A stretch of DNA of 64,000 nt, from the NCBI GenBank assembly GCA_900553895.1, contig USFB01000001.1, forward strand, positions 49,735-113,734. The letters run 5' to 3'. Shown here piece after piece: positions 1,683 to 51,468 of this stretch (position 1 is the first letter of the stretch; every line of letters starts with the position of its first letter). The notes under the pieces are model-generated. The model ran no database searches. It was given only the letters and a program-made list of their open reading frames with translations, and was not told the DNA's origin. The translations under genes and the position numbers were made by a program. This stretch comes from an uncultured bacterium. Lineage in GTDB: Bacteria > Cyanobacteriota > Vampirovibrionia > Gastranaerophilales > Gastranaerophilaceae.

Positions 1683-1723
1683 GTCCCCACCCTAACCCTC
1701 CCTCGAAGGGAGGGAATAATGTT
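1683..1723. repeat. GC-rich palindromic repeat element copy A (ccccaccctaaccctccctcgaagggagggaataatg)
   Basis: Contains the perfect inverted repeat ccctccc-tcgaa-gggaggg in an AT-rich background. It shares the CCCACC / CTCCC..AAGGG..GGAATAATG motifs with the copy at 49745-49798 and with the 3' end of the pepP insertion. Confidence 0.5.
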
Positions 1724-5428: not shown

Positions 5429-6553
5429 ATGAAAAAGATATTTATTATTACAGGCGAATACTCCGGAGATATCCATGCCGGCAAGGTTTTAGAAATGTTA
5501 AAACGTTCTATGCCCGATATTGTTGCAGAAGGTATTGGGGGAGAAAATTTAAAATCAGCCGGTGCAAAAATCTTTTGTGACCATTCAAAAATGTCAGGTT
5601 TTGGTTTAAATTTTAAGATGATTGTTGATCACTTATCTTTGGAAAAAAAAGTTGCTGATTATATTTTAAACGAATTTAAACCTGATTTGGTTTTGTTAAT
5701 TGATTATGGCACATTTAATTTAAGAGTTGCGAAAAGGCTTAAAGGAAGCGGAATTAAAGTATTCCATTATATTCCTCCACAAATTTGGGCGAGTCGCAAA
5801 TGGAGAATAAAAGGTATAAAAAAATATGTAGACAAAGTTCTTTGTATTTTCCCTTTTGAGCCTGAAATCTATCAAGCAGAAAACATTGATGTACATTATT
5901 GCGGACATCCTCTTGTTAAACAATTACCACCAAGAGCTGATAAAGAAGAATTCTTTAAACAGCATGAATTGGACATATCAAGACCTTTAGTGTCAGTATT
6001 TCCTGGCTCAAGACCATTGGAGCTAAAACTCTTCGGAGAACGCTTTATCGAAGCTGCTAAAGTTTTACAAAAACGCCATCCTGAATTGCAAGTTTGCATT
6101 TCGCATGCACCAAACTTGAAGGATGATATTTTTGATAAGTACATTAAAAATACTGATTTTAAAGTTATTAAAGGCGAAAACCAAGCTTTGCTGAGCGTTT
6201 CAGACTCATTAATTTTAGCATCAGGAACAGTTGCTTTAGAAGCAAGTTTATATCAAGTTCCAATGCTTATTGCATATCGCGGACCGTGGCTGCTTTATTT
6301 GATTTATTTGCTTGTAAGATGTATCAAGAGAGTTTCTTTACCAAATATTATTATGGATGAAGATATCGTACCAGAATTAGTTCAGCATAAATTTAGTGTT
6401 GAAAATATTTGCTACGAAACAGAAAAAAATCTGTATGACAAAAAGCATAGAGAGTGGATGATTAACGAACTTGCTAAAGTCAAAGAAAAACTTTCCGATA
6501 AGTATTCCGCAGAAGAAGTTGCAAAATGTATAAAAGAAGAATTGGATAGATAA
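5429..6553 (+). CDS. lpxB: Lipid-A-disaccharide synthase
   Basis: 374 aa with an MKKIFIITGEYSGDIHAG N-terminus and GT19 family pattern. Confidence 0.85.
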   Translation: MKKIFIITGEYSGDIHAGKVLEMLKRSMPDIVAEGIGGENLKSAGAKIFCDHSKMSGFGLNFKMIVDHLSLEKKVADYILNEFKPDLVLLIDYGTFNLRVAKRLKGSGIKVFHYIPPQIWASRKWRIKGIKKYVDKVLCIFPFEPEIYQAENIDVHYCGHPLVKQLPPRADKEEFFKQHELDISRPLVSVFPGSRPLELKLFGERFIEAAKVLQKRHPELQVCISHAPNLKDDIFDKYIKNTDFKVIKGENQALLSVSDSLILASGTVALEASLYQVPMLIAYRGPWLLYLIYLLVRCIKRVSLPNIIMDEDIVPELVQHKFSVENICYETEKNLYDKKHREWMINELAKVKEKLSDKYSAEEVAKCIKEELDR

Positions 6554-31628: not shown

Positions 31629-31660
31629 TGTCTATATTTCTCTTTTTATTTTTTTAATAC

Positions 31661-31695
31661 GGTGGGAACCGCTCCGCTATTCCCACCCTACGCCT
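31661..31695. repeat. GC-rich repeat element copy C (ggtgggaa-ccgctccgcta-ttcccacc)
   Basis: 8-bp inverted repeat containing CCCACC, immediately followed by CCCTACGCC. Compare copy A, CCCCACCCTAACC. Confidence 0.4.
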
Positions 31696-31711
31696 TACTT
31701 TTTATTGTTCT

Positions 31712-37674: not shown

Positions 37675-37850
37675 GCTCCGCACAACCTCACTTGTCAGCA
37701 CTACCGTCCGAGATAATTTTGAAAAGCATATACCTCTTTTAATAAGTTGAATTGCTTCGTCACTATAAAATGTTCCTCGCAATGACCGGGCGTTTGACTT
37801 CCAAGCGTGCCGTCATTGCGAAGGCGATTAGCCTGAAGCAATCCAGCCTT
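37675..37850. repeat. GC-rich structured element E with a 12-bp hairpin (cctcgcaatgac...gtcattgcgaagg)
   Basis: GC-rich island between the ATPase start and the tolC-like stop. Long near-perfect inverted repeat at 37776-37825. Confidence 0.35.
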
Positions 37851-44993: not shown

Positions 44994-45830
44994 ATGCTTA
45001 CAGAATTAGAGATTAACGAATTAAAGAAATTCGCTTGCGAAACAAGAAAAAATATTGTTAAGATGGTGCATAATGCAAAATCGGGTCATCCTGGTGGTTC
45101 GCTTTCTGCTGCTGACATTATGGCTGTTTTGTACAACAAATCTCTAAATATTCCTAAAGAATGGGATAAATCTGCTGATTTCGAAAATCGTGATAGATTT
45201 ATTTTATCAAAAGGGCATGCATCACCTCTTTTATATTCCGTTTTGGCGCAACACGGAATGTTCCCTCAAGAAGATTTGATGGGATTTAGAAAGTTTGGAA
45301 CTAAGCTTCAAGGTCACCCTGCAAAAGGTTATGTTCCGGGAGTTGAAACTTCTACCGGCTCTTTAGGTCAAGGACTTTCAATCGGATGTGGTATGGCATT
45401 AGGGTTAAAGCTTAAAAATAACCCTGCGCATGTTGTTGTATATACAGGCGATGGCGAATTACAGGAAGGTTCTTGCTGGGAAGCTTTTATGCAAGCTGCA
45501 CACAGAGATTTGGATAATCTTATTGTAATTATAGATAGAAACAGACTTCAAATTGACGGATGCACAGAAAATGTTATGGCTTTAGATAACTTACATGACA
45601 AATTAAAAGCGTTTAATTGGAATGTTTTGGAAATTGACGGGCATGATTTTGAAGAAATTTATGAAGGTGTAGAAAAAGCAAAACAATCAGATAGACCTTG
45701 CGCCATTATTGCTCACACAACAAAAGGCAAAGGTTGTTCTTTTATGGAAAACCAAGCAGGCTGGCATGGAAAAGCTCCAAGCGATGAACAATTAGAAGAA
45801 GCTATTAAAGAATTTGAAGGAGCATTATAA
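44994..45830 (+). CDS. Transketolase, N-terminal (TPP-binding) subunit
   Basis: 278 aa with GHPGGSLS and TGDGELQEG motifs, as in split transketolase. Confidence 0.85.
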   Translation: MLTELEINELKKFACETRKNIVKMVHNAKSGHPGGSLSAADIMAVLYNKSLNIPKEWDKSADFENRDRFILSKGHASPLLYSVLAQHGMFPQEDLMGFRKFGTKLQGHPAKGYVPGVETSTGSLGQGLSIGCGMALGLKLKNNPAHVVVYTGDGELQEGSCWEAFMQAAHRDLDNLIVIIDRNRLQIDGCTENVMALDNLHDKLKAFNWNVLEIDGHDFEEIYEGVEKAKQSDRPCAIIAHTTKGKGCSFMENQAGWHGKAPSDEQLEEAIKEFEGAL

Positions 45831-46048
45831 TGAACGATAATTCTATTAAAACATGTCCGTTTGCAGAAAATAAAGTTTGTAATGAAACTTGTCCTTTGTA
45901 TATTTCGCCTGAAGAATTGAACGAATTTGTAGTAGCAAGACTTTCTTCTATCGGAGTATTAGATAGAGCAGAAGGTGAATGTTCACTGAAAATGCTTGCA
46001 TTAAGCCAAGGTAGAGCTATTTTTGAAAATACAAATACTCGTGGGTAA
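45830..46048 (+). CDS. Small Cys-rich protein (72 aa) translationally coupled to the transketolase N-subunit
   Basis: TAATG overlap with the upstream gene. CX9CX3CP Cys pattern. It occupies the position where the transketolase C-subunit is expected. Confidence 0.35.
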   Translation: MNDNSIKTCPFAENKVCNETCPLYISPEELNEFVVARLSSIGVLDRAEGECSLKMLALSQGRAIFENTNTRG

Positions 46049-46060
46049 TAACGTTTTTAT

Positions 46061-46786
46061 CTAGCAATATAATAATTTGTACAAAATAACTCCGGCTGAA
46101 ATACTCAAATTAAGCGATTCGACCTTATCGGTCATTTCTATTGTTACATTTTTTGTTGCATAATCTTTTAGCTTTTGGCTCAAGCCTGATGATTCCGTAC
46201 CGAACATTATAAGAACTTTTTCTTGTGGCGTATAATCTTTTAGCCAAACGGTATTATCGGATTTAGGAAGTGTTGCAACTCTTTCATAATCTTCAAAAAC
46301 GCTCAAATCATCCATTTCAAAAACAGGAATTTTCCAAAGATTTCCAACGGATGAGCGCACACATTTTGGATTATACAAATCTACAGTATCACCATATAAT
46401 ACGACCGCATCAACATCAAAAGCACAAGCTGTTCTGAGGATTGTACCTAAGTTTCCCGCATCTTTGATATCTTCCAACAGAACTACTTTTTTATAGTTAT
46501 CTTGCCATTTTCGATTGATTTTTTTTGCAACAGCGACAGCTTTTGGCGCAGATTCTGTTGAAGAGATTTTAGAAAGTACGGCTTCTGTTGTTTCTATTCG
46601 TTCATTAAAATCTGTAAACTCGCTTGAGCCTTCCAAAACAAATAAGTGTTCTATTTCTAAACCTGATTCAATAGCTTCTTCAATACATTTAATACCTTCC
46701 AACAGAAAATGCTTTTTGCGGTATTTTCTCTGCAAAAGTTTTGCGGTTTCTTTCACTAATTCATTATTCACACTTGTTATTTTCAT
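46061..46786 (-). CDS. TrmH/SpoU-family RNA 2'-O-methyltransferase
   Basis: 241 aa with SPOUT motifs (LGTILRTA, GTESSGLS). Confidence 0.7.
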   Translation of the reverse strand: MKITSVNNELVKETAKLLQRKYRKKHFLLEGIKCIEEAIESGLEIEHLFVLEGSSEFTDFNERIETTEAVLSKISSTESAPKAVAVAKKINRKWQDNYKKVVLLEDIKDAGNLGTILRTACAFDVDAVVLYGDTVDLYNPKCVRSSVGNLWKIPVFEMDDLSVFEDYERVATLPKSDNTVWLKDYTPQEKVLIMFGTESSGLSQKLKDYATKNVTIEMTDKVESLNLSISAGVILYKLLYC

Positions 46787-48414
46787 AAGATTTTAAAATC
46801 CTTCAACCATTCTTTTTCTTGTTCATTCAGTAAATCATAGTTAATCAATTTACCTTCATAACCCATTTTAACAAAAGAATGAATTTTTCCACACTCCATG
46901 TAACAAGAATTTTCTAATCTTACGCCAAAATGTTCAGGATTATACAGCCCAGGTTCAATTGTGAATGTCATACCATCAACAATTTGCGTTTTAGCAATCT
47001 CGTTTTGAGAAAGGTTTGGTGGAGCTTCGTGCACATTGATTCCAATACCATGCCCTAGTCCATGACCAAATGTAAACCCTTCGATTTTATTATCTAAAAT
47101 AGAATGTGCCAACGTATCTATTTCAAAACCGCAAGGAGCATTGTCCCCTCGCCCCTTGTGGGAGAGCGGATTTTCGGTAGGGCGTAAGCCCGTAAGGTGG
47201 AGGTCGGACGTTACTCCGCCGACACCCCGAATAATCCAAGACGGGGAGCAGTCGTTAGCGAAGCTATGCTGAGCTTTACGGATGCGGGTGAGGGAATTAT
47301 CAAGATAATTAAACGAATTCAAAAACGCCTTCAATACCGTTGTATAAACCCTTTTCTGCAATTCATTCGGTTTACCTTTTACAAAAACTCTTGTAATATC
47401 GGTCGCCAAGCCACTGTCATAATACGCACCGCAATCAATTAAAACAAGCGAACCATCTTTTAAAATAACATCTTTGGCATTTTTTGCATAATGCGCCAAT
47501 GCCGAATTTTGATTAATTGCAACAATAGAATTAAAACTCAAAGATTTTGCACCGAATTTTATAAATTCTTCTCGCAAACGCTTTGCTATATCGTATTCTG
47601 AAAGATTATCATTATTTTCTATAAATTCTCTTATCGCAGAAACAGCCTTGTCAGTGCGCTCAAAAGCCTGCTTATAAGCTTCTAATTCTTCCTTTGATTT
47701 AACTGATTTCATGCTCTTTATTTCTGAAAATTTGTGAATAGGATTTTTGATTAAAGAATAATCATGCGCATTAATCGAATTTTTATCAACATTCAACTCA
47801 GCATCGAAGTTTTTTAAAAACTCATCAGTGTTATCTGTCAATAAAATTTGTTTTTCTTTGTCAGCATATAGTTTAGCCCAAATTTTTGATGAACAATCTT
47901 TTGAAAAATCACGTTTCCCGCTTATATAAGAAACTTCTTCCAAGTTTGTTACAAAAGTCGGATTCTCTGGATGGTATTCTTTTGCAGGCATTGCCTGAAC
48001 AAATTCTACGTTATGTGATTCTGTAAAATCATTAATCGGATCTTTATCTAATAATTTGATTTTATAATCTTTAAACGTCTCTAAACGTGTTTGAGAAATT
48101 TTTTTTGCAACAACACCTAATGTTTTATCAGGTCTGATAAGTTTTCTGATTTCATCATCTTGCTTTTGACCAAGTTTAAGTTTTACAACCGTAACACCCT
48201 CTTTTACTTCATTGTCAGCTTGTATATGATATCTGCCATCAACAAACAAATAAATATTATCTTTTGTAATTAAAGCATCACCAGTTGAGCCTGAAAAACC
48301 TGTCAAAGTGTATCGAGCGTTTTCGCTAAGAGCAGGATATTCTACTAAAAACTCATTTGTACAACACACGAGAAGATAATCCAAATTCAAATCGTTTAGG
48401 AGTTTGTTTGACAT
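46783..48414 (-). CDS. pepP: Xaa-Pro aminopeptidase (M24B) carrying an in-frame GC-rich insertion
   Basis: Creatinase_N plus an M24 domain with the DCGAYYDSGLATDITR metal site and HGLGHGIGINVHE. An extra ~65 aa encoded by a GC-rich element lies between the Asp-Asp and His ligands. Confidence 0.8.
   Translation of the reverse strand: MSNKLLNDLNLDYLLVCCTNEFLVEYPALSENARYTLTGFSGSTGDALITKDNIYLFVDGRYHIQADNEVKEGVTVVKLKLGQKQDDEIRKLIRPDKTLGVVAKKISQTRLETFKDYKIKLLDKDPINDFTESHNVEFVQAMPAKEYHPENPTFVTNLEEVSYISGKRDFSKDCSSKIWAKLYADKEKQILLTDNTDEFLKNFDAELNVDKNSINAHDYSLIKNPIHKFSEIKSMKSVKSKEELEAYKQAFERTDKAVSAIREFIENNDNLSEYDIAKRLREEFIKFGAKSLSFNSIVAINQNSALAHYAKNAKDVILKDGSLVLIDCGAYYDSGLATDITRVFVKGKPNELQKRVYTTVLKAFLNSFNYLDNSLTRIRKAQHSFANDCSPSWIIRGVGGVTSDLHLTGLRPTENPLSHKGRGDNAPCGFEIDTLAHSILDNKIEGFTFGHGLGHGIGINVHEAPPNLSQNEIAKTQIVDGMTFTIEPGLYNPEHFGVRLENSCYMECGKIHSFVKMGYEGKLINYDLLNEQEKEWLKDFKIL
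47140..47298 (-). repeat. GC-rich repeat element copy F inserted in-frame in pepP
   Basis: About 160 nt at ~60% GC inside a ~30% GC gene. It shares ccctcac-cgcatccgtaa with 50310-50330, and gccctaccgaaaatc plus attattcgggg with 51340-51465. Its terminal ctcccacaaggggcgagggg resembles copy B, ctcccgcaaggggcgaagg. Confidence 0.55.
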
Positions 48415-49744: not shown

Positions 49745-49798
49745 TACCCCTCATCCGGGCTCCGCCCACCTTCTCCCGCAAGGGGCGAAGGAATAATG
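49745..49798. repeat. GC-rich repeat element copy B (ccgcccaccttctcccgcaaggggcgaaggaataatg)
   Basis: Lies between rplK and rplA. It shares CCCACC, CTCCC, AAGG and GGAATAATG with copy A. Confidence 0.45.
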
Positions 49799-50234: not shown

Positions 50235-50249
50235 TTTGTTCTCCTTTCG

Positions 50250-50375
50250 TGGTACTAGCGGGGGGCACCCCCTTCCACGTTATTTGTGTTGTGTTTTCAA
50301 AGTGAAACCCTCACTCGCATCCGTAACTTTCGCTATGCTCAAGAGCGGTTGCGACCTCTCCAATGGAGAGGAGAA
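50250..50375. repeat. GC-rich element copy G in the rplK leader
   Basis: Contains ccctcactcgcatccgtaa, a 19/20 match to the pepP insert. It could additionally serve as the L1-binding leader. Confidence 0.4.
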
Positions 50376-51217: not shown

Positions 51218-51242
51218 TTTAATAACCTTTTTCTATAAAAAT

Positions 51243-51315
51243 CGCGCCCTGAAGGACTCGAACCCTCGACATCCGGTTTTGGAGACCGACGTTCTACCAA
51301 CTGAACTAAGGACGC
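51243..51315 (-). tRNA. trnW: tRNA-Trp (anticodon CCA)
   Basis: The reverse complement GCGTCCTTAGTTCAGTTGGTAGAACGTCGGTCTCCAAAACCGGATGTCGAGGGTTCGAGTCCTTCAGGGCGCG folds as a cloverleaf with a 7-bp acceptor stem, a GTTCGAGTC T-loop and anticodon loop CTCCAAA. Sits in the conserved rpmG-trnW-secE position. Confidence 0.85.
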
Positions 51316-51324
51316 ATGCGGGTA

Positions 51325-51468
51325 ATTAATACCCATTCCCAAATTATTCGGGGATGCAAGTTTTTGTTCCGTTATTAAATCCTTACGGATTCAGCCACTC
51401 CACCAAACTCTAGCATCTTGCGGGCTTGCTCGCTATCGCTCGACATCGCCCTACCGAAAATCTGGTTA
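51325..51468. repeat. GC-rich repeat element copy H between tRNA-Trp and rpmG
   Basis: Shares a 15-nt exact match gccctaccgaaaatc, plus attattcgggg and ctccacc, with the pepP insert. Confidence 0.45.

Follow-up and report, generated by a model that had tools for sequence, protein, structure and literature searches.

Nested repeat modules with BoxC/PIT/TM ends in a pepP-like gene assigned to Gastranaerophilales

Results

A GC-rich insert in a pepP-like gene

The 64,000-nt stretch of DNA examined here (the window; GCA_900553895.1, contig USFB01000001.1, positions 49,735-113,734, forward strand) carries a pepP-like gene for an Xaa-Pro aminopeptidase (46783..48414, minus strand; coordinates below are window positions), and this gene hosts a composite repeat element of 150 nt (47145..47294, minus strand). 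The gene is an open reading frame (ORF) of 543 aa with Pfam Creatinase_N and Peptidase_M24 domains and with prolidase/aminopeptidase P homologues in PDB. The element, delimited by sequence comparison among alleles, consists of a BoxC/PIT/TM intrastrand triplex motif (hereafter TM) as scaffold and two nested modules, A and B. Throughout, L-numbers denote retrieved DNA loci or contigs and P-numbers denote related PepP protein sequences or clusters. Taken as a whole, the segment is probably best explained as non-autonomous repeat DNA that has turned into part of a gene.

GC content across 47100-47299 is 0.53-0.62, against 0.329 for the full window, and that of the element itself is ~60%, against 33% for the genome. 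An earlier reading of the DNA without database searches (the sequence-only reading) had described a GC-rich repeat in an AT-rich gene, inserted without a break of frame between the Asp-Asp metal site and the HGLGHG/VHE ligands of the M24 catalytic domain and related to nearby GC-rich intergenic copies. This much agrees with our results: a single ORF spans the segment, and in its translation the insert lies between D327 and D339 on one side and H451-E463 on the other. The composite nature of the element, together with the apparent age of the short TM and the later addition of A and B, had been missed. Residues are indeed added, although 54 rather than the ~65 proposed, since the loop measures 62 aa in the window PepP and 8 aa in insert-free orthologues. 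Alignments with the PDB homologues cover two query segments, 212-376 and 428-504, which adjoin each other in the homologues without a gap, so that ~51 aa are extra in the window PepP by this comparison.

Sequence matches assign the host to Candidatus Gastranaerophilales (Melainabacteria). Contigs with close PepP relatives originate from human-gut samples, and most of those retrieved share the gene order rpmG-tRNATrp-secE-nusG-rplK-rplA-ppiC-pepP-spoU. Assemblies made independently of the window (L187, L186 and the 51 sequences of cluster P0001) carry the same insert, which is thus not an assembly artefact. Alignment of orthologues, a check that the sequence-only reading had proposed, identifies close relatives without the full insert, for example L005 with an empty site and L003 with a short TM; unrelated taxa, in which that reading allowed that the same insert might be found, lack it.

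The ends of the element and the BoxC/PIT/TM motif

The TM (TMECO) has been known since the 1990s (Bergler 1992; Hoyne and Maher 2000; Holder et al. 2015, PMC4666352). Holder et al. listed 23 copies in MG1655, with TTA loops in type A and CCG loops in type B and with a common mismatched "mm" form, and reported that the motif is always intergenic in E. coli and has no link to transposons, that it occurs in >260 genomes and is very abundant in cyanobacteria, and that it is tied to local instability, its function and mode of spreading not being known (PMC4666352).

Judged by sequence, the ends of the pepP element (CCCTCACCC ... CTCCC-ACAA-GGGGCGAGGGG) are this motif. Its three blocks of ~9-10 nt, the C-rich CCCTCKCCC and the G-rich GGGAGAGGG and GGGTGAGGG on one strand, match Holder Table 1 and lie at 47145-47155, at 47160-47164 plus 47243-47246 (a split block) and at 47286-47294. 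Block 3, the "head" CCCTCACCC (47286..47294, minus strand), is the exact complement of the block 3 given there (GGGTGAGGG). Block 2 is divided, as a comparison of copies with and without B reveals, into a 5' fragment (CCCC; 47243..47246, minus strand) and a 3' fragment (CTCCC), the latter forming with loop 1 (ACAA) and block 1 (GGGGCGAGGGG) an "mm" hairpin (47145..47164, minus strand) that is the same as in E. coli type A mm. The loops of the motif are short (1-6 nt; loop 2 is TTA in type A and CCG in type B), whereas in the window the distance from block 3 to the 3' part of block 2 is 121 nt. Among orthologous alleles, L003 (with TAA on the coding strand) and L007 (with CAA) do have short loops, and L003 is an uninterrupted, textbook type A "mm" TM.

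Of 5426 complete E. coli genomes, 5409 contain the short TM form, at a median of 18 places per genome. Viral contigs contain it as well (at least 120, ranging from 36 to 73% GC), and the copy upstream of fabI in E. coli K-12 is Holder's TMECO no. 9. With termini of this kind, and with L003 as a type A mm form, the suggestion in the sequence-only reading of an apparently distinct element family does not stand. The pepP element shares with the E. coli type A "mm" form its three blocks and hairpin loop, and both are multi-copy, lack a known mobilising gene and sit in locally variable sequence. The differences are that the E. coli motifs are reported to be always intergenic, ~34-37 nt long and provided with a 3-nt loop 2 (PMC4666352), whereas the pepP motif is intragenic, holds a 39-nt hairpin in loop 2 and has its block 2 split by a 78-nt element.

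That the segment might instead be a member or direct relative of the Rickettsia palindromic element (RPE) family is suggested by its behaviour, as RPEs too are palindromic repeats that lie in frame within conserved housekeeping genes, in a genome rich in AT, and whose additional peptide segments are apparently tolerated. We regard such kinship as exceedingly improbable: the host belongs to Gastranaerophilales, a different phylum, and the sequence, which was set apart without alignment to an RPE consensus, is homologous to BoxC/TM, a motif common to many phyla, with nested modules in addition.

A graded series of alleles at one loop

The loop, defined as the segment after ...KAFLN, was measured in an alignment of 120 PepP relatives. 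It is 8 aa long (AFNSKFST) in the most distant relatives and 62 aa long in the window, P0001 and P0002, with other lengths of 10, 12, 14, 17, 20, 22, 24, 25 and 34 aa. In the window this hypervariable region comprises residues 367-428 (47131..47316, minus strand), as delimited by the protein alignment, the loop-length table and an AlphaFold model. At the DNA level the insertion site is empty in L005, holds CCCTCACCCTAACCCTCTCCCACAAGGGACGAGGGGG in L003 and CCCTCACCCCAACCCTCTCCCAAAGGGCGAGGGAGG in L007, and retains an AT-decayed remnant in L001; L004 has the same ends with a 39-43-nt interior (module A), and the window allele has the same ends with A and the 78-nt module B. Similarly, the P0113 lineage carries a decayed copy at the pepP site, and its relative P0114 (86.8% nucleotide identity) has an empty one. 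Allele states are intermixed in a neighbour-joining tree of PepP, which points to several gains, losses or exchanges at the loop.

The existence of orthologues with an empty site, with intact short TMs and with AT-decayed remnants shows that a BoxC/PIT/TM landed in the loop codons between two helices of the M24 domain of PepP in an ancestor of a Gastranaerophilales clade. In the window lineage, loop 2 of this TM holds A, and its block 2 is split by B, a module that also exists alone. From these sequence comparisons the short TM at the pepP site appears to be old, with A and B as a later addition. The reverse order, in which the composite is an original full-length miniature inverted-repeat transposable element (MITE) with CCCTCACCC/GGGCGAGGG inverted ends and the short TMs at the site are internal-deletion derivatives with no later nesting, strikes us as improbable. 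The ends are imperfect inverted repeats, complementary at 8 of 9 positions (module B, too, has terminal inverted repeats, GGATTATTCGG and CCGAAAATCC), and the CTCTC found on both sides of B in some subfamilies could drive deletion, but it is the short TM that is widespread, in alleles 77-96% identical to the window protein, with A and B together restricted to the closest alleles. Moreover, 121 nt of the window allele correspond to a mere TAACC in the short allele, so that simple insertion or deletion cannot interconvert the two. Short TMs also occur in phyla without A and B, and B exists alone.

Within the later-addition reading, sequence divergence suggests that the addition may be recent. 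Identity between the window and L186 is 97.3% in the element, 89.5% in the upstream flank and 94.2% in the downstream flank; the corresponding values for L004 are 91.5%, 81.9% and 88.5%. Flank changes are mostly synonymous (synonymous:non-synonymous 72:25 in the upstream flank of L186), and hence the element has diverged several-fold less than adjacent silent sites. The junctions of L186 are mosaic, with the 5' side of one allele class and the 3' side of another, and L003 lacks A and B despite flanks that are 94.6-99.2% identical to those of the window.

Module A, a covarying hairpin

Module A is a 39-nt hairpin (GCATCCG-TAA-...-TAA-CGACTGC-T; 47247..47285, minus strand) in TM loop 2, present also in L004. 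A hairpin is the usual occupant of TM loop 2 in Gastranaerophilales, where the canonical element of ~72 nt reads CCCTCACC-CGCATCCGTAACTTTCGCCTTCCGGCTCAAGAACGGCTGCT-CCCTCTCCC-ACAA-GGGGCGAGGG. Among 37 distinct copies the outer stem takes the forms GCATCCG/CGGCTGC, GAATTTC/GAAATTC, GTTTTTC/GAAAAAC and GAAAATC/GATTTTC, and the inner 3-bp stem likewise covaries. In alignment A2, changes occur on both sides in 12 of 13 pairs, and standard pairs fill 85.5% of cells (63.8% when shuffled). The covariation score is 0.479, compared with 0.147 after shuffling and at best 0.138 with partners slid by 1-3 columns; the cells are not independent events, as the copies form subfamilies. Despite this subfamily structure, no fewer than four different stems maintain the fold. 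An inversion of canonical A was considered as the source of the module A interior in pepP, which proved to be a different subtype (GCTC...TCGCTAA, as in L152) rather than a reverse complement. No printed sequence of module A or B was found in the literature searched.

A scan across genomes with the 19-nt junction of head and A, CCCTCACNCGCATCCGTAA, matched 56 loci. The majority are metagenome-assembled genomes labelled Candidatus Gastranaerophilales, Melainabacteria or Vampirovibrio, with at most ~14 copies per genome. About 12 matches, in unrelated high-GC taxa and with the remainder of the element missing, look like chance. Two near-identical GC-rich stretches ~5 kb apart in Streptomyces palmae (NZ_JBHLTX010000058.1; L130, L141) match the pattern with no TM hairpin after it, and they are therefore probably an unrelated local duplication. 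The full architecture of TM, A and B recurs in L131, L142, L146, L161, L167 and L179.

Module B, an independent Y-shaped element

Module B (GTCTTGGATTATTCGGGG...CCCTACCGAAAATCCGCT; 78 nt, 47165..47242, minus strand) splits TM block 2 at CCCT|CTCC with no visible target duplication. Folded as single-stranded DNA, the window copy has a z-score of -3.0, and three variants adopt the same Y-shaped fold with z between -3.0 and -4.2. The P3 stem shows compensatory changes, being GGGC/GCCC in 48 copies, GGGT/ACCC in 6 and GAGT/ACTC in 2. When sequences were compared, the pepP module B was found with no more than one mismatch in 78 nt at 10 places, namely 3 pepP alleles and 7 short TMs at unrelated loci (L192, L195, L206, L224, L232, L250, L252).

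Scanning metagenomes with the 5' end of the module gave 89 loci. At these, B resides within plain short TMs, where it interrupts block 2 (CCTCACCCTAACCCT|B|CTCCTGCTAGGAGAGGG), within a TM variant (…AGCTT|B|CTCCCCTCAAGGGCGAAGC), within head-plus-A elements, or alone. It is present in nine viral contigs as well. The junction in TMs is invariably YT|CTCC (for example CCCT|CTCC or GCTT|CTCC). Stand-alone copies have no consistent flanking duplication, their flanking CT being explained by the conserved ...CCGCT end of B itself. The P2 loop, enclosed by the GGTGTCGG/CCGACACC stem, can point either way (AAAGTTCTCAGCTTC and CGGAGTAACGTCCGA, both of which are also seen as reverse complements). Its orientation in L237, L233 and L275 is opposite to that in L188, L190 and others, as though the stretch flanked by the inverted arms were able to flip. 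A further insertion of ~45 nt is found in this loop in L192, L212, L214, L249 and L256.

One context is common to ~20 stand-alone copies, between a gene for a TniB/MuB-like ATPase and a gene of unknown function and beside a Mu-type transposase gene; these were counted by reading, and an automatic tally of 45 was set aside because its pattern was too loose. In L209 (5295-8507), for example, the genes on either side of B encode a TniB/MuB-like AAA ATPase and an unknown protein of 186 aa; a gene for a Mu-type transposase (Mu-transpos_C, rve) is located upstream of B, and a terminase-small-like helix-turn-helix gene comes after it. By gene content, this context in ~20 gut contigs looks like a Mu-like transposable prophage, in which B sits internally and not at the end of the Mu-like element.

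Palindrome-associated elements derived from IS200/IS605 resemble module B in the lack of a target-site duplication, in a structured single-strand fold and in a fixed short adjacent sequence; module B differs from them in being a single Y-shaped fold and not two subterminal hairpins. No Y1/HUH transposase turned up for module B, for which no systematic search was made.

Translation and the resulting protein loop

Across the 150 nt only one of six frames is open, that of the gene itself, and all eleven loop-allele lengths are multiples of 3; hence the insert is most likely translated. Predicted tryptic peptides inside it include GVGGVTSDLHLTGLRPTENPLSHK and AQHSFANDCSPSWIIR. In an AlphaFold model of mediocre quality (mean pLDDT, the predicted local distance difference test score, of 67; 20-sequence alignment), residues 372-425 have pLDDT 21-26 and no secondary structure and lie between helices 351-382 and 429-438. 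The structure modelling proposed in the sequence-only reading thus predicts a disordered loop between two helices.

A protein search with the 55-aa insert peptide returned only three short ORFs (72-80 aa) with no Pfam domain, so that wide translation of the composite in the frame used in pepP is not indicated. In-frame insertion nevertheless recurs, and with it the parallel to Rickettsia palindromic elements that had been drawn from the sequence gains further examples. A double ABC_tran ATPase (L133, L156) has three in-frame TM-derived elements in one gene, among them PLTRIRNSLTLKRLLPLPHGARG, which consists of head, A and hairpin in the same frame as in pepP; in L133 the middle one, a short TM segment, exceeds its L156 counterpart by 42 aa and contains a B-like stretch (RKSALP). 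In the PrmC methyltransferase (L144, L164), TPHPDPLLKERE stands directly before the S-adenosylmethionine-binding motif. Of the 72 elements detected in ~514 kb from Gastranaerophilales, 9 lie inside long ORFs, in three genes only: pepP, the ABC ATPase and PrmC. An AcrB-like gene (1070 vs 1040 aa) was also suspected of an in-frame insert, but its extra length is C-terminal and involves no element.

If the element were removed before the protein is made, as an intron-like RNA, by translational bypass or in the manner of an intein, PepP would be without the extra loop. Modules A and B are strongly structured, and the case for translation is built from sequence, both of which leave some room for removal. 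Even so, we hold it to be very unlikely. Neither multiple-of-3 lengths nor a stop-free frame unique to the gene would be needed under removal, and copies occur in either orientation relative to neighbouring genes. Furthermore, 150 nt is too short for known self-splicing introns, Rfam gives only chance-level matches below gathering thresholds, and the 54-aa insert has no domain match and no intein motifs.

A second alternative keeps the loop and makes it useful: an adaptive, lineage-specific insertion in PepP that serves as an interaction or regulatory loop, its GC richness and likeness to repeats being incidental. The insert is stably in frame in many samples (P0001, 51 members), and its sequence is better kept than the flanks. 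Within the element, however, unique changes comprise 4 synonymous and 5 non-synonymous ones, too few to be conclusive, as compared with ~3:1 in the flanks, and they give no sign of selection on the peptide. The same modules are found between genes in both orientations relative to transcription, near-identical B occurs at unrelated loci, the insert is predicted to be disordered, and close relatives such as L003 manage without A and B. We therefore give an adaptive loop little credence.

Further copies and neighbouring features

Repeats related to the pepP element are present elsewhere in the window, as had been claimed from the sequence. Block CGCCCTACCGAAAATC is found at 47169-47184 (minus strand) and 51447-51462 (plus strand), and block CCCTCACCCGCATCCGTAA at 47276-47294 (minus strand) with a one-mismatch copy at 50308-50326 (plus strand); in 100 dinucleotide-preserving shuffles of the window with which these two blocks were tested, neither gave a match (0/100 each). 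The nucleotide similarity to intergenic elements, on whose absence the sequence-only reading would have been abandoned, is thus confirmed computationally. The hairpin end of the pepP element also matches 49772-49788, and a short copy lies near 1685-1714, in line with the copies that had been placed near 49745-49798 and 1683-1723.

Four such copies, all on the plus strand, were delimited by sequence match. The one between nusG and rplK (50308..50372) has the head, an A-type hairpin and CCTCTCC-AAT-GGAGAGG; it is diverged in L003 and L007 and absent from L001. The one between rplK and rplA (49748..49791) is a TM variant (CCCTCATCC GGGCTCCGCCCA CCTTCTCCC GCAA GGGGCGAAGG) whose loop 2 holds a 12-nt hairpin, and an enlarged B-like copy stands alone between rpmG and tRNA-Trp (51343..51462); both are absent from L001, L003 and L007. 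The last is the short TM-like CCCCACCCTAACCCTCCCTCGAAGGGAGGG (1685..1714). Target-site duplications sought in the intergenic alignments of the window with L001, L003 and L007 were not readable, as the flanks are too rearranged. A tRNA origin of the neighbouring GC islands was rejected, the only tRNA being at 51242-51316. Searches of Rfam at gathering and permissive thresholds with the pepP element, the intergenic copies, the canonical composite and stand-alone B returned only tRNA-Trp and chance-level matches.

Other hairpins are interspersed with these repeats. A GC-rich palindromic repeat, CCTCGCAATGAC...GTCATTGCGAAGG, is found at 37771-37848 and in L003 (15190-15270), and the motif lies downstream of many composite elements at other Gastranaerophilales loci (for example L146, L167 and L182), so that the intergenic DNA is a mosaic of several hairpin families. 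Another hairpin, GGTGGGAA...TTCCCACC (31654-31701), has a similar form beside a composite element in L144 (~6230-6270) and may be a further repeat family. The GC-rich hairpin CGTGGTACTAGCGGGGGGCACCCCCTTCCACG lies directly upstream of rplK on the strand of the gene (50240-50290; L001 8222-8274, L003 2695-2759, L007 7667-7717). Unlike the repeats it is kept in all relatives, and it has no Rfam match; it may be an L11-operon leader.

Two observations concern neighbouring genes. Between a split transketolase N-terminal gene and the SpoU methylase gene lies a 72-aa ORF with Cys pairs (CPFAENKVCNETCP; 45830-46048) and no Pfam match, and an ORF of similar size occupies the equivalent position in relatives (72 aa in L001, L002, L003, L187 and L286; 70 aa in L287). 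In L003 (3298-4015) rplA is split into two overlapping ORFs of 109 and 145 aa, where relatives have a single 241-aa gene; this call may be a frameshift or an assembly error.

Discussion

The core of this repeat family, BoxC/PIT/TM, is already known. What appears to be undescribed is the presence of the TM inside conserved genes, its elaboration by a covarying hairpin A and an independent Y-shaped B, and the graded series of alleles at one loop. BIME (mosaic REP clusters) and REPIN-RAYT systems likewise comprise mosaics of several hairpin repeat types in intergenic DNA, with hairpins kept by compensatory change; they differ in that REPs are extragenic. No GTAG or CGTC tag stands at the hairpin foot in our aligned copies, and no RAYT gene was identified, although no search was aimed at one. 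The heterocyst-forming cyanobacteria, a sister lineage of the Melainabacteria, host small dispersed repeats (SDR), which Elhai et al. (2008) reportedly described as very small, mutually nested and located in genes without frame breaks. This likeness serves as a lead rather than a test.

The B copies with no more than one mismatch at seven loci, the low divergence of the element and the mosaic junctions of L186 together suggest that the A+B interior reached the pepP TM recently. It might have done so by insertion of B at a preferred site, or by copy-and-paste from another composite copy, in which case gene conversion or template switching could have used the shared TM ends as homology. The insert is probably transcribed and translated, its ~54 additional residues making up a disordered loop tolerated by PepP, and selection would have retained only an in-frame, stop-free version. 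The element is most likely useless to PepP. It would be the element's own structure that is conserved, probably as single-stranded DNA recognised by some mobilising activity.

Several points weigh against this account. The alignments of the window with L001, L003 and L007 contain no clean pair of empty and filled sites with exact boundaries for the TM itself. No transposase or other mobilising gene was identified, although no systematic search for one was made. The low divergence of the element could stem from constraint at the DNA or RNA level instead of recent transfer, and the single fixed junction of B in TMs could descend from one ancestral event spread by recombination, with no target specificity. 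To these may be added the modest AlphaFold model and the inconclusive count of changes within the element.

A more far-reaching proposal, which we put forward only tentatively and consider rather doubtful, is that tiny structured mobile elements form a hierarchy in which TM/BoxC motifs serve as landing pads. B, and perhaps A as well, would then represent a new kind of element of ~40-100 nt. Such an element would insert into the pyrimidine arm of TM hairpins, always at the point YT|CTCC, and also at other places, without duplicating its target; it would have flipping hairpin loops and could be carried into coding sequence, where it creates protein loops.

BoxC/PIT/TM motifs are among the most widely shared short bacterial repeats, and their spread and role are still puzzling. 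In this lineage of gut Melainabacteria the TM sits in conserved enzymes as a scaffold for nested structured modules, a case outside Rickettsia of selfish repeat DNA adding tens of residues to a housekeeping enzyme, with relevance for the annotation of metagenome proteins and for understanding the origin of new loops. The graded pepP alleles at one locus provide concrete junctions and testable substrates. If the landing-pad proposal is true, the alleles that occur naturally at this site (empty, short, +A and +A+B) would give access to a question that is 30 years old, that of the origin and spread of BoxC/PIT/TM.

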